Source: a virus
Virus record (IMG/VR): IMGVR_UViG_3300044640_002221
Span: 1 to 64,000 of that record
Strand: one strand, 5' to 3'
DNA: 64,000 nt
Shown here: positions 7,353 through 59,274 of the stretch, one piece after another
Layout of the letters: each line of letters opens with the position of its first letter
Position numbering within the stretch: the stretch's first letter is position 1
Program-made: the position numbers and the translations under genes
Notes under the pieces: model-generated
What the model was told of the DNA's origin: nothing
Databases searched by the model: none
What the model saw: the letters and a program-made list of their open reading frames with translations, nothing else

Positions 7353-10300
7353 ATGGAATACTCTACCAATCCTAAACCAGAAAAGAAATCTTATTCTGTT
7401 AGCTACATTGAAGACGCTGACACTATCTCTGTTAAACGAGGTAGTGAATCCTTCAGCGTCCGCTTTGCTTTAATAGACGCACCAGAAGTTGCTCACTCAC
7501 CTCTAGAGCAGGAGAGCAAACTTCGCTCAGTTCAAAATCAACTTGAATGGGGAGAGAGGGCTAAAGCTCGTGTTACAGAGTTGATTACACAGTCTGGCAA
7601 CCAAGTAGAACTTCAAGTAACAGGAAAGGATAAGTATGGTCGTAGCATTAGTGAAGTGTTCCTTAAGTCTGGTCAATCACTTCAAGAACAACTACTTAAG
7701 GAAGGTTTAGCAAAAGGTAATTACTCTTTTATTACAGACTCTGCTGATAAAACCAGAGTTCAAGCAGCAGAGTCTGTTGCGTTTAAACAGAGTTTGGGAT
7801 TGTGGGGTGATTCTTCTTTTATCAATCCATCTCAATATCGCCAACTTCTAAAAAGTAACGCATTTAGTCCTAATCCTTTTACTTCTTTATCACAGCCTAA
7901 TACAACATTAGGGAGTATCTATCTTCCTACCACTCTCTCAGAAGGTTTTGCTAGTAAGTACCCTAACAGCAAACCACAACTATACACAGATTTCTACTAC
8001 ACCCTCACAGGTAAGATGCCTTCTGGCTTTCAGAAGTATCTAGCTAGAACAGCAGATAGTCAACTCGGCGGCGTAAGCTTTGGTTCTTTCATTAATAGAA
8101 TCTTTCCAGACCTCTACTCTCCTGGTAACGGTTTAGTTGGTACTCTAGCTAAAGGTGTTGGTCGAGTCTTAGACACAGCTACTGGCTTCTACGCTTTTGA
8201 CTATTATGACAAGCTTAGAAATGGAGACTTACGTGGTGGCATTAACAAGTACCACCAGAATCAATATAAAACCAACCAACAACGCGGTCTGTTTGAAAAT
8301 CTATTAGGTGGGCTAACAACTACTGCGGGGGCTACTGCTTCCTCTTTAGCTTTTTACTTTGGTGTAAGCCATACTCTATCAATCGCTCGGTCACACTTTG
8401 AGGATATAGGAGTAGATTACGTTACCAATCTTCTATCTAACTCTCAAAACAATGTAGGCGATAGAGCTCTAAAGAGTTTCTTCTTCTCTGGTGACTTACT
8501 TAACGTATTCACAGAGATAGAAGAAGCAAATATACCAGGCGTAAAGGGTAAACAAGTCCATGACTATTTTGCTTATGTAATGCACAAAGCCGGAGCAGCC
8601 TCGACTTTTGCAGAAAGTAGCAATTTAGACACAACTATTATTACTCATTTAGACAACGCTAACAGCACTGGGAATACTTACACTAACGACTTAATAGAAA
8701 GGTTAACTAGAGAATTAAATGCTTTACATACATCAACTGCCAGCTTTGCTCAAGCTACTCAACAGGTAGAAAGAAACGTATTAGGTCTTAATAAATCAAC
8801 AGGAGAAATTGACCTGTCTAGAGGATTAGCTTCAGGCTACAACCGTCCGGCTGGAGGTCTGTTATCAGCTATAGGTAATTTAAGAAAAGTAGACTCCTCT
8901 AACTTCATTAATATCATTAGACCTGTAATTAATGAAATAGCAGTCGGTACTCCTCAAGAAATAACACAACTAAATATAGAGTTAAGCGAGCTTCAAACTC
9001 AGGTAGGCCGCTCTCCTTTCTTAAAGTATGCGGATGTTAAGGGTGGTACATATACCTTTCTAGAAGACATAACAGCACAGCAGTATGGTTACAAACGTCT
9101 TGAGACTCTTGCTAGTGCTTTAGATAAAGTAGCTGAGTACATCCCTGCCAATCCCTTACTTTACTTCAAGCCTTATAGAGATATGGTAGGCATTACTTCT
9201 CTAAATGTGGATAGAGGTAATGGTAATAGTGAAAACTACTCTTTAAGGTCTTTATTAGGGCCCGGCTTTAGTGGTTTAACTAAGTTTAGCCGTCGGATGA
9301 TGCGATCGCTCGGTGGTCTTGGTAGCACAGAAAATATTGTCAAACAGATGGGTGACAACTTCAGACTATTTGAGCTAGAGCAAGAACTAAACCGCTCTGA
9401 GCAAAGGTTGTTTAAAGATACTACTAAGATTCTTAATAGAATGAAACAGCCCACAGGAAGTGTTGGGATGCTTAATGACTTAATAAAGAATCGTCAACCA
9501 ACTGCAAACATTTTAGCGGACTTAACTGGTGCTTTATACAGCTATGACGGTACTGTAGCGAAGACAGCAGAAGAGCTACTAGCATCTAAAACTAGCGCAA
9601 GACTAATAAATAAATACAAAAGAGATTTTGCAACTTATAACAGTCTTTTACAACAAGTAGATAACTCAACAGAAGCTTTAAGCAGCACTCCTAAAACAAC
9701 CTTTAGGGCTATTAGAGGAGCGTTGTTTAGTGTTGGGCCACTCTTGATATTAGACAAGGTTTTAGACCCTCAGTTCATGCGCTCTCCTAGTGTTGACTTG
9801 ATAACTCAGGTCTTTATGGATGCCAACTTGTTACAAGATAAAGACACTAGACACGCTCAGATAGAATATACAGGTGCGGTTCCTGGTTATATTAAGTATC
9901 CAGCAATGGGTATAGGTTTTATTCTTGGTGGTCACGCTCTACCAAGATTTGAGCAGCAACAAATGGCTGCTGGTGGTTTTATAGAAAAAGCTATTACAAA
10001 AGCAGCTAATGGTACTAACCTGCTAGACCTGTTAAATAGTTCACCGGGAACTACACCGCGCTCTTCCCTCCTATCAGGATTAACAGAGGATGTTGTTAAT
10101 GAGGTAGCTTCTTTAGGTAAATATAGAACCAGAACACGATTTGGTTGGCTGGGAGCTTTCTTAGGGGGAGCTACTGCTCTGTTAGGTACACAAGCAGTTT
10201 TTGGTATGGCTGCCGGGTTTATGAACTTAGTGAGGAGTCCTTTTAGAGATAGTGCTCCTAAAACTCAGCCAGAACCTATGATTGCTGCTTTCTCTTTAGC

Positions 10301-56815: not shown

Positions 56816-56905
56816 ATCGTGCACCGCGTTTAATATTATAATTCCTGTTCCTTTAGCCTCCTTTCGTACGCGTATCATGGCTTCTTTCATCATCTGGGCG
56901 CATTC
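56816..56905 (-). CDS. polA: polA exon 3 (90 nt)
   Basis: Translates ECAQMMKEAMIRVRKEAKGTGIIILNAVHD, the segment between IQG and motif C. Confidence 0.92.
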
Positions 56906-57000
56906 CGATTATGTTATCACTGAGCTTTTTATCTCAGTTTCTAAAGATTTCTCCTTAGTCCAGGGCACGTCTTGAACAGTAAGTGGGTAGTAGGTTTGGT

Positions 57001-57411
57001 CTAGAAGGGAGAGGCGTAACCTTTCCAGTCTTCTATGGTATTTAAGGTTTGAGTCTCAGTGGTCAGTCCAGCTATTAAAGTAGAGACACCTCCTTGTAAG
57101 TTTGGTAGTTTTATTCCTTTAGAAGGATTAGCTCTTTCAAACTCTGCATAAGCTTTATCAGAGTAAAACTGCCCCGTGCTTTGCTGGAGTTGGTCTCTCA
57201 GCTTAGTGTTCTCTTCCATAGCAACAATCAACTTTTCAGTCAATTGTTGGTTCTGTGTTTGCAGGTCAGCTACTAAAGCTTGATAGCTACTGGTGAGAAC
57301 TATCTTGGTGTCAAGTATCTTCTCTAAGTCAGAAGACTCGACGAACTGTTCGTTGTGGTTGTTCATTTGTTTAGATAACGTAAGGTTGAACAATTGCGCG
57401 GTACTCTTCAA
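57001..57411 (-). CDS. Hypothetical coiled-coil protein (intron 3 cargo)
   Basis: 136-aa ORF inside L8 of intron 3. Confidence 0.55.
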   Translation of the reverse strand: MKSTAQLFNLTLSKQMNNHNEQFVESSDLEKILDTKIVLTSSYQALVADLQTQNQQLTEKLIVAMEENTKLRDQLQQSTGQFYSDKAYAEFERANPSKGIKLPNLQGGVSTLIAGLTTETQTLNTIEDWKGYASPF

Positions 57412-57979
57412 GTCTGGCTTCTAAGGTTTGGCACTTAGTTTCAAGTTGATTAATCTGCTCTACATACTTAGGAACTAAGTCTTCAAGCTCTGCCAATCTA
57501 GCTCTCAAGTGTATGAGTTCTGACTTTGAGCTTTCCTTCTTCTCTGTAGCCTTTTCAGACTGTTCATTAAAGTAGTCTTCTGCAGTACCTTCCCATAAAG
57601 GGTTAGCCTCAAGCTTATCAACTGCCCAGCGAAGAATCTTATCACTGATAATTACTTTGAAGCAGCTCTCTTCTTTTAGAAGACCAATCTTTTCCACAAC
57701 GTCCCAATGCTCATAGAGGAAGATACAGCGGTAAGCTTTTCTTCTTTCTACTCTCTCTTCTAAATAATGATTAAAAGAGTTGAAAGTTCCTCTGTCAGTT
57801 TCTACAGGGTTAGACTTAGTAGCTGATGCCAGCATATCTCTAATCTTTGTGAGAGACTCTCCAGCATCTCGGTAATGTTGAAGGCTCTTTCTCCTTAACT
57901 GTTGAGACTCTTTAAAGTTCTCGTCAGCTTCACCAAACTTAGTCATGTAATTTGTTTCTAATAGAGATAGGATAAGCAT
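57371..57979 (-). CDS. Hypothetical protein, DUF3102-like N-terminus and coiled-coil tail (intron 3 cargo)
   Basis: HYRDAGESLTKIRDM...TFNSFNHYLEE pattern. Confidence 0.45.
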   Translation of the reverse strand: MLILSLLETNYMTKFGEADENFKESQQLRRKSLQHYRDAGESLTKIRDMLASATKSNPVETDRGTFNSFNHYLEERVERRKAYRCIFLYEHWDVVEKIGLLKEESCFKVIISDKILRWAVDKLEANPLWEGTAEDYFNEQSEKATEKKESSKSELIHLRARLAELEDLVPKYVEQINQLETKCQTLEARLEEYRAIVQPYVI

Positions 57980-58320
57980 AGAACTTTTATTCTGCTAAAG
58001 GACATGACCTGTGGTTTAAACCACAGGTTCTCATTACTAATATAGCAGCTTATTCTAGAAGAAACATCTTGAGTCTTATTAAACCTTCCAACTACCTTAA
58101 TACGACCTTTGCTGCCTACTTACTGTCCGGGGGCGCTCTTGGGTCTCTTACCGTCTGTTCCTGCAATGCAAGACTGAAGACTTAGACCTGCCCGTCGCAC
58201 CTTCCTACCATTTCTGATAGGCTTGGCTCAAAGTTATCCTCAACATCACTTGGTAGGACTTTCTTATGAGTTCACCCCCTGCACTCTAAAAGTCACCTAA
58301 TAGAGGGGCAATTGTTATTT

Positions 58321-59204
58321 CAGTGTTATTACCGTCAAGGCTCTTTATCCCTGACTTCTACTGGTCACCCAGCAGCTTGGACTATTTCATTATCTAGACT
58401 TAGTAGTAGAACTCTCTTTCTATTTAAGAAGAAACCAGGTTCTTGGTACATAAGCTTGGTCAGCCGTTCAACGCGTTCCTTACTGCCGACTCTTATCACT
58501 TGCACACTCCTATTGTTGTAGATGCTAACCTTAAAGTCATTCTCTCTAAGAAAACTAACTAATTGGTCAACAAACTCTTTACTAGCAGAGCATAAAGTTA
58601 TAGCTTTGTAATCCCCTTTTGCCCCATCCTTTTTGATGTGACCATTCCCATCCATGACACCTCTAAAGAAGCTAAAACTTAAAGGAAAGTTAACCTTTAA
58701 AGATTTACTCTTTCTAGGGGTTATTCCAAGGCTAGTTAAATAAGAAGCAACTTCTTTATTAGTGAAGCTTACCTCGTAATAAGTAGTTTGGTATCTCTTG
58801 TCGAAGATAGGGTAGGGTTTCATCAATTCCCCTAAAAAGCTGCAGAAAGCTAAGGCTAAGTCTTCATCTTTTGTAACTAGACTAACCTTTCCTCTATCAT
58901 GCACGCAGCCATCTGTTGCCATTATTCCCAGCCAGTATTGAACTTCTGGGGCAAGCATTTCTGTAAATGGATTAGTTGTTACTTTCTTAGGGAGTCTTGG
59001 CATCTTTTTCTCTACTACATTCTCAGTCTAGATATCGGGCGCTCGTGGGCAGATTATTATTGGGATTCACTGCCTAGTCTCTGAACCTTCTAGGAAACCT
59101 ATGCCCTTCCTAGCTTGGCTTAGCGTTATCTTACCTTGTAAGACTTTCACTAAATTCACCCGATTTTCATTTATTGATTACTCAATAAAGGGGCTCTCTA
59201 CGGG
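58321..59204 (-). mobile_element. Group I intron 2 of polA (884 nt), with a LAGLIDADG ORF in L8, inserted after IQG
   Basis: P1 GGGU/GCCC; P2 UUAUUGA-GUAA-UCAAUAA; P3 UCGGGUG/CGCCCGA; R GUUCAGAGACUA (59086-59075); P8 UAUCUAGACU/AGUCUAGAUA; S AUGAAAUAGUCC (58390-58379). The 3' end at G58321 is inferred. Confidence 0.88.
58365..59003 (-). CDS. LAGLIDADG homing endonuclease (intron 2)
   Basis: YWLGIMATDGCV and FFRGVMDGNGHI motifs; the 3' end overlaps P8, S and P9. Confidence 0.9.
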   Translation of the reverse strand: MPRLPKKVTTNPFTEMLAPEVQYWLGIMATDGCVHDRGKVSLVTKDEDLALAFCSFLGELMKPYPIFDKRYQTTYYEVSFTNKEVASYLTSLGITPRKSKSLKVNFPLSFSFFRGVMDGNGHIKKDGAKGDYKAITLCSASKEFVDQLVSFLRENDFKVSIYNNRSVQVIRVGSKERVERLTKLMYQEPGFFLNRKRVLLLSLDNEIVQAAG

Positions 59205-59274
59205 ACCCTGGATCGCGTGGTTCACTGCAGCGCGAACCGAGCTTTCTCCTACGCCCTTAGCATTCTCTTCATCT
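59205..59274 (-). CDS. polA: polA exon 2 (70 nt)
   Basis: A + GAT...GGT gives (V)DEENAKGVGESSVRAAVNHAIQG, containing the conserved RxAxNxxIQG motif. Confidence 0.92.

Follow-up and report, generated by a model that had tools for sequence, protein, structure and literature searches.

The window analysed here covers positions 1 to 64,000 of IMG/VR record IMGVR_UViG_3300044640_002221, which has a length of 136,923 nt and an estimated completeness of 71%. On its minus strand lies a gene for a family A DNA polymerase (polA), present as exon fragments with recognisable polymerase motifs and interrupted by several group I introns. Rfam found one of these introns outright (58358-59214, 63.7 bits) together with the 5' half of another at 63587-63677, and all Rfam group I intron matches, both in this record and in that of the related phage described below, fall inside the polA gene region. 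The intron of interest, intron 3, parts the codons for G and E in IQG/ECA, between polymerase motifs B and C, and shares the gene with four other loaded introns. Its peripheral helix P8 opens into a long loop that holds two genes, ORF A and ORF B (Table 1).

Table 1. Positions of intron 3, its neighbours, its structural parts and its cargo genes, with the free-standing relatives of ORF A
Feature	Position	Strand	Remarks
Upstream polA exon, ends ...AIQG	59205..59274	-	
Intron 2, LAGLIDADG-bearing	58321..59204	-	Rfam RF00028 63.7 bits; LAGLIDADG_3 match; without counterpart in ortholog
Intron 3, group I, IA-like, one P7.1-type hairpin	56906..58320	-	1415 nt; ortholog L005 7609-9033, same exon bases at both ends
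5' catalytic half	58129..58320	-	MFE folding; 91% identical to ortholog
P1 guide GCCCC	58309-58305	-	part of 5' catalytic half
P3 GGGGGUG	58279-58273	-	pairs with P3'
P2, P4-P6	within 58129..58320	-	5' catalytic half; compensatory changes in P5 and P6
P7 5' strand	58193-58189	-	part of 5' catalytic half
P7.1 hairpin	58188-58142	-	between P7 and P3'
P3' CGCCCCC	58135-58129	-	pairs with P3
P8 5' arm	58112..58128	-	directly after P3'; pair probabilities 0.8-1.0
15-nt element AGGUCGUAUUAAGGU just inside P8	58094..58108	-	identical in both phages; leader otherwise 41% identical
Loop leader upstream of ORF A	57980..58093	-	41% identical overall to L005
TATATT box	58044-58039	-	conserved in both phages; TGC in front in window
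Hairpin, 8-9 bp	58028-58007	-	downstream of TATATT box, upstream of ORF A
ORF A, 202 aa	57371..57979	-	helical globular domain and long C-terminal helix; without nuclease domain
ORF B, 121 aa	57001..57366	-	coiled-coil N-terminus, conserved GYASPF tail
P8 3' arm	56974..56990	-	best duplex partner of 5' arm in whole intron, both phages
3' catalytic half: J8/7, P7', P9, P9.1, terminal G	56906..56973	-	compensatory changes: P9 4, P9.1 1
P7' (S element)	56967-56963	-	sole UGCCC after P7 5' strand
Downstream polA exon (ECAQMMKEAM...NAVHD)	56816..56905	-	
Free-standing ORF A paralog	own genome 119576-120247	+	outside window (L011 1441-2112)
Free-standing ORF A paralog	L013 1420-2232	-	related phage
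Free-standing ORF A paralog	L014 1483-2118	-	related phage

Placement of intron 3 within polA

In a related phage (IMGVR_UViG_3300046777_002658, 196,877 nt; L005), this intron interrupts the gene at the identical codon, but the LAGLIDADG intron found ahead of it in the window is missing. There, the exon ending in ...AUCCAAGGU directly adjoins AAAUUACAUUUGCCCC. From this abutment, the first base of intron 3 in the window is 58320 (AAAUAACAAUUGCCCC), and intron 2 (59204-58321) is placed exactly on its 5' splice site. When compared with L005 7590-7625, intron 2 lies between the last U of the exon and the first base of intron 3. Intron 2 probably arrived later, given that in the related phage this site is occupied by intron 3 only. 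At its other end intron 3 closes with ...AAUCG, the terminal G being 56906. Exon GGGU and intron GCCCC form a P1 with a U-G pair at the 5' splice site, and the ligated exons are in frame (...RAAVNHAIQG followed by ECAQMMKEAMIRV...) and can be aligned, with no gap, with 6vdc, a DNA polymerase I (...RAALNAPIQGSAADIIKVAMINV...).

In both introns it is the same exon GGGU that pairs with GCCCC, and intron 2 would have to leave before intron 3 could form a compact P1. The P7 pairings of the two introns differ (AGACUA/UAGUC in intron 2 and GGGCA/UGCCC in intron 3), a difference that would prevent cross-pairing between them.

The ribozyme core and the helix that closes its loop

Intron 3 has the core helices of a group I intron in their proper order, with P3 and P7 nested as a pseudoknot. 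Folding recovers P2, P3, P4/P5, P6, the P7.1 hairpin, P8, P9 and P9.1; P7 was assigned manually as GGGCA/UGCCC, for which the intron offers no alternative pair. No core helix is broken between the window and the related phage, and the two orthologous introns differ by 11 two-sided compensatory changes, distributed over P5 (1), P6 (4), P8 (1), P9 (4) and P9.1 (1). The contribution of P8 to this two-intron comparison is one compensatory pair and one one-sided change. Sequence identity to the ortholog falls from 91% in the 5' core through 72% in ORF A and 54% in ORF B to 41% in the loop leader.

A search of 58320-56906 with Rfam RF00028 gave no match at the gathering threshold or at E values up to 10; the score of the ortholog is 25.5 bits, where the gathering cut-off is 50. 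Scores are probably lowered by the large P8 insert and by P7.1, an extra hairpin of IA type. Scans of viral contigs with protein patterns and core motifs for further orthologs of the intron yielded one relative contig only, metagenome scans returned nothing or two chance matches, and neither DNA nor protein comparison with GenBank phages gave a match.

The sequence-only reading of this locus had drawn a P8 helix around two ORFs in one of two introns of a single gene, and this picture holds: the intron is a distinct one within polA, both arms lie where they had been placed and both ORFs are real genes. The loop is slightly longer than the 1116 nt it had given. In the best gapless register, 58128-58112 with 56990-56974, 15 of 17 positions pair, and the base of the helix consists of 11 uninterrupted pairs; an inverted-repeat search gives 87% complementarity for the inner 15 nt and a spacing of 1121 nt from arm to arm. 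Contrary to the description of the helix as rich in wobble, with differences between the arms kept paired through G-U, there is a single G-U pair (58127/56975) and there are two true mismatches, A-C at 58117/56985 and C-A at 58114/56988. Many inverted repeats in the same 1.7 kb are just as good, so that the repeat alone is not significant. Its position is more telling, as P8 begins at the base after P3' and ends five bases before the UGCCC of P7'. When the 5' arm was scanned against every 25-nt window of the intron, the 3' arm was its best partner at -19.6 kcal/mol (next best -15.4); in the related phage the arms reach -23.6 kcal/mol (next best -13.0) in the same structural place. In partition-function folding of all 1415 nt, the P8 pairs of the window have probabilities between 0.8 and 1.0. 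The same range applies to the 12 proximal pairs of the ortholog; its five distal pairs lie at about 0.5, because a 7-nt repeat offers an alternative register. A chance inverted repeat is ruled out by the position, the best-partner scans and the ortholog. A nearer S element (P7') had been named as a finding that would speak against this helix, and none was found in intron 3.

Comparison with the related phage also clarifies how selection may have acted on the helix. Its closing pair is G-C in the window and A-U in the ortholog, the G-U of the window is there an A-U, and the mismatch at 58117/56985 is likewise replaced by an A-U pair; the distal stem of the ortholog, GGUAG/CUACC, pairs perfectly if one bulged U is allowed. 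The earlier proposal of selection at the RNA level is thus retained by way of compensatory changes and not by way of G-U wobble, and the covariation check that had been proposed, made between the two orthologous introns, shows P8 kept through one compensatory change among the 11 found across five helices. As a separate observation, the 3' arm region (56974-56994; L005 8930-8965) is built on a short CUAC/UACUACC repeat, present in two and a half copies in the related phage and providing alternative registers for distal P8. Just inside P8, GGUC at 58107-58104 is predicted by MFE folding of both phages to pair with GACC at 57001-56998, at the stop of ORF B. This segment may extend the closure of P8 beyond what was originally drawn.

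Cargo genes of the loop and their relatives

Both open reading frames are real genes under purifying selection. Between the window and the related phage dN/dS is 0.12 for ORF A and 0.24 for ORF B, at a dS of about 1.5, which is near saturation. To judge from the two orthologous introns, the two-gene cassette is older than the split of the two phage lineages. ORF B begins 4 nt after the stop codon of ORF A and has ten relatives with a strongly conserved coiled-coil N-terminus and the GYASPF tail. All ten begin M-N-N-x-N-E-Q-F-V, and this shared start makes ATG 57366 the most likely start of ORF B instead of TTG 57411, where it had previously been set. In both phages ORF B occurs as a single copy, in the intron only, and it was not found beside the free-standing copies of ORF A; the pair therefore does not move as a unit. 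Intron 1 holds no homolog of this cargo, which indicates that the two introns were loaded by separate events, as had been suggested from the sequence alone.

Neither ORF A nor ORF B has a nuclease match in Pfam or PHROGs. ORF A has six close relatives (58-92% identity) and 48 representative relatives in all, with residues G40, W92 and W118 invariant across the family. AlphaFold2 gives confident models for the whole protein (pLDDT 94.9) and for residues 1-135 (pLDDT 95.7), with a long helix, a beta hairpin, a small bundle of helices and, at the C-terminus, a helix of 70 residues. No informative match came from Foldseek; fold searches with the whole model recovered generic coiled coils only, as did the ORF A profile against solved structures. 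A wide structural search listed the DNA-binding domains of VirB, KorB, SopB, ParB and Spo0J among its top rows, matching residues 31-135 at Z scores of only 3.3-4.8, below the trustworthy level. Within that range, VirB (3vwb) was aligned over 82 residues at Z 4.8 and rmsd 3.2, followed by KorB (1r71, Z 4.2), SopB (3mkw, Z 4.0) and ParB (1zx4, Z 3.4). Weak leads to DUF3102 (PF11300) came from BFVD (Foldseek) and the ESM Atlas, and among 42 members of the ORF A family Pfam gave no DUF3102 match at E 0.01. Taking the fusion partners and these weak fold matches together, it is reasonable to infer that ORF A is a dimerising, DNA-binding module. The C-terminal coiled coil of ORF A (columns 150-200 of the family alignment) is almost identical in relatives whose N-terminal domains are only about 60% identical, which hints at recombination or at a strongly constrained partner surface.

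The earlier statement that the loop lacks an endonuclease motif is correct for ORF A and ORF B themselves and does not extend to the family. Four of the 48 representatives (P0031, P0035, P0038 and P0042), all longer than ORF A, have at their N-terminus a GIY-YIG domain in which the expected motif residues are present, and as a profile this domain matches the GIY-YIG domain of UvrC (1yd6) at E 0.0011. ORF A itself has no Pfam match to a GIY-YIG domain and does not class as a homing endonuclease, and no such domain was found anywhere in the phage record that contains the window. On these comparisons ORF A is best described as a relative of the non-catalytic module of such proteins, not as an endonuclease. 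In a quick, unfinished and unrooted tree the four GIY-YIG members are scattered, and three of them adjoin nuclease-less sisters. Repeated loss of the domain is a simpler account of this pattern than repeated gain, as far as an unrooted tree can be read in this way. In the quick tree the intron copies group in a clade of seven of their own and have thus not been copied recently from free-standing members.

Free-standing paralogs of ORF A occur once in the genome of the window and twice in the related phage. Each is antisense to its neighbours, with no intron nearby. A free-standing, antisense and multi-copy habit is typical of homing-endonuclease-like genes. Two of these paralogs start with PSVYLLSYH, which resembles the first GIY strand of P0031 and may be what is left of a nuclease domain.

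Upstream of ORF A, the loop leader has retained the 15-nt block, the TATATT box and the position of the hairpin. Box and hairpin lie about 30-70 nt upstream of ORF A, and the ortholog has a hairpin of different sequence in the same place (box and hairpin region about 7920-7960). ORFs in T4 introns are expressed from their own promoters. A consensus scan found no sigma-70-type promoter in the leader of the window, and the one it called in the leader of the related phage is at chance level. The same type of scan lists the hairpin of the window as terminator-like, its tail being a poor T-run, and the hairpin of the ortholog failed the terminator scan. The box and hairpin provide a lead, to be taken as such, towards an internal promoter with a protective 5' hairpin. 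Alternatively, the hairpin may be a leaky terminator, in which case it could in principle cut the pre-mRNA short.

Origin of the cassette and comparison with known introns

The reading that best accounts for these observations, at a probability of roughly three in four, is that polA contains, at bases 58320-56906 of the minus strand, a working group I intron whose P8 loop houses a cassette related to endonucleases and without a nuclease. The P8 hairpin would have been opened and extended by the insert, leaving a 15-pair stem, probably lengthened by GGUC/GACC, to join the halves of the ribozyme core across 1121 nt, and the intron as a whole would splice, judging by its sequence. ORF A would be a dimeric protein, probably DNA-binding, from a multi-copy, selfish-looking family in which the longer members begin with a GIY-YIG nuclease domain. 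This domain would have been lost from its lineage, as opposed to never having been present, and ORF A would then be a nuclease-less relative of homing endonucleases that is kept for another job. ORF B would be a small coiled-coil protein translated directly after it, and the cassette is perhaps expressed from the conserved TATATT box inside the loop.

It is very improbable that intron 3 is a decayed relic which no longer self-splices, being removed only together with intron 2 or leaving polA broken. Such decay would agree with the missing Rfam match, with the two mismatches in P8 of the window, with the position of intron 2 on the 5' splice site and with a record that is only 71% complete, but the core helices are intact, carry the 11 compensatory changes relative to a phage that has intron 3 alone, and are far better conserved than synonymous sites; as both introns use GGGU/GCCCC, P1 can reform once intron 2 has left. 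A two-piece intron can be given similarly little credence. Transcription would in that case stop at 58028-58007 and restart internally, with the P8 arms joining the two RNAs for splicing in trans, and the terminator-like hairpin, the conserved box just upstream of it and a long P8 suited to pairing between molecules would all find a place. However, both P8 arms lie outside the pair of hairpin and promoter, on one strand and in one orientation, the T-run is poor and the hairpin of the ortholog failed as a terminator. In addition, a promoter at the box would fire before the hairpin, which more simply caps the 5' end of the ORF transcript, and a stop at this point would starve the essential 3' exons of the polymerase.

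More weight, though still well short of an even chance, can be given to the idea that ORF A and ORF B are ordinary accessory genes captured in L8, perhaps displacing an endonuclease, with the GIY-YIG fusions as secondary gains. The replacement of a former endonuclease by other genes had also been named in the sequence-only reading, as an example of a recurring mechanism. This would fit the lack of a nuclease motif in both proteins, the 44 of 48 family representatives without GIY-YIG, invariant residues that do not look catalytic and a 130-nt leader in which no remnant of a nuclease domain is visible. It fits poorly with fusion of the domain at the same end at four separate positions in the tree, of which three have sisters lacking the nuclease, and with the free-standing, antisense and multi-copy paralogs. 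A family that includes GIY-YIG-bearing members points instead to a relative of the endonucleases that is itself without the nuclease, and replacement by unrelated genes is not upheld.

The usual description of a phage group I intron is that of a ribozyme with one homing endonuclease; P8 is a normal site of insertion and 1.4 kb a normal size. The ND5-717 group I intron of hexacoral mitochondria reportedly holds whole genes in P8. In both introns, genes other than endonucleases occupy a P8 loop that a long-range helix closes; ND5-717 is organellar, much larger and filled with host housekeeping genes, whereas intron 3 has an insert of 1.1 kb with cargo of seemingly selfish origin.

Among phages, group I (IA) introns with an ORF in a peripheral loop are known from DNA polymerase genes, as in cyanophage Pf-WMP3 with I-PfoP3I (PMC3428280), and SPO1 and Bastille are cited as further examples in a review (PMC3984707). 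Intron 3 shares with these introns a site in a conserved stretch of the polymerase gene, an ORF of the same strand looped out from a peripheral helix, an IA-like core and an extra hairpin between P7 and P3'. It differs from them in holding two ORFs instead of one, neither with a nuclease motif, and in residing in a polymerase gene that it shares with four other introns, one of which adjoins it with no exon between. Another parallel for ORF A is I-TevIII of the T4 nrdB intron, a defunct homing endonuclease whose intron is moved in trans by MobE (PMC2790892; reviewed in PMC3984707). Like I-TevIII, ORF A is related to an endonuclease family without being able to cut, and mobility of its intron would need a nuclease supplied in trans. 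Unlike the decaying I-TevIII, it is under clear purifying selection, and a dN/dS of 0.12 makes it look retained for function. A domesticated relative of homing endonucleases that serves as a DNA-binding regulator is reported from the PLE satellite of Vibrio phage ICP1 (PMC8096241). That protein and ORF A would be alike in being endonuclease-family proteins kept for a role other than homing; the former is the gene of a phage satellite and the latter an intron ORF, for which a regulatory role is only a guess.

Perhaps, the P8 loops of the polymerase introns in these cyanophages act as safe harbours for genes, with ORF A and ORF B as a domesticated GIY-YIG descendant that forms a ParB/KorB-like, sequence-specific DNA-binding dimer and its coiled-coil partner. 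This broader view is speculative and on balance improbable. If true, the two proteins might regulate polA or their own internal promoter, or help the intron to persist, and would represent a new functional class of intron-encoded protein. Independently of this, intron 3 presents a conserved two-gene, nuclease-free cassette maintained by purifying selection despite nearly saturated synonymous sites, and makes ORF A and ORF B a concrete, testable case for what becomes of intron endonucleases after cutting stops, whether decay or a new job. Knowledge of group I folding is left unchanged by intron 3; together with the four other loaded introns in polA, it contributes to the view of these polymerase introns as carriers of genes.
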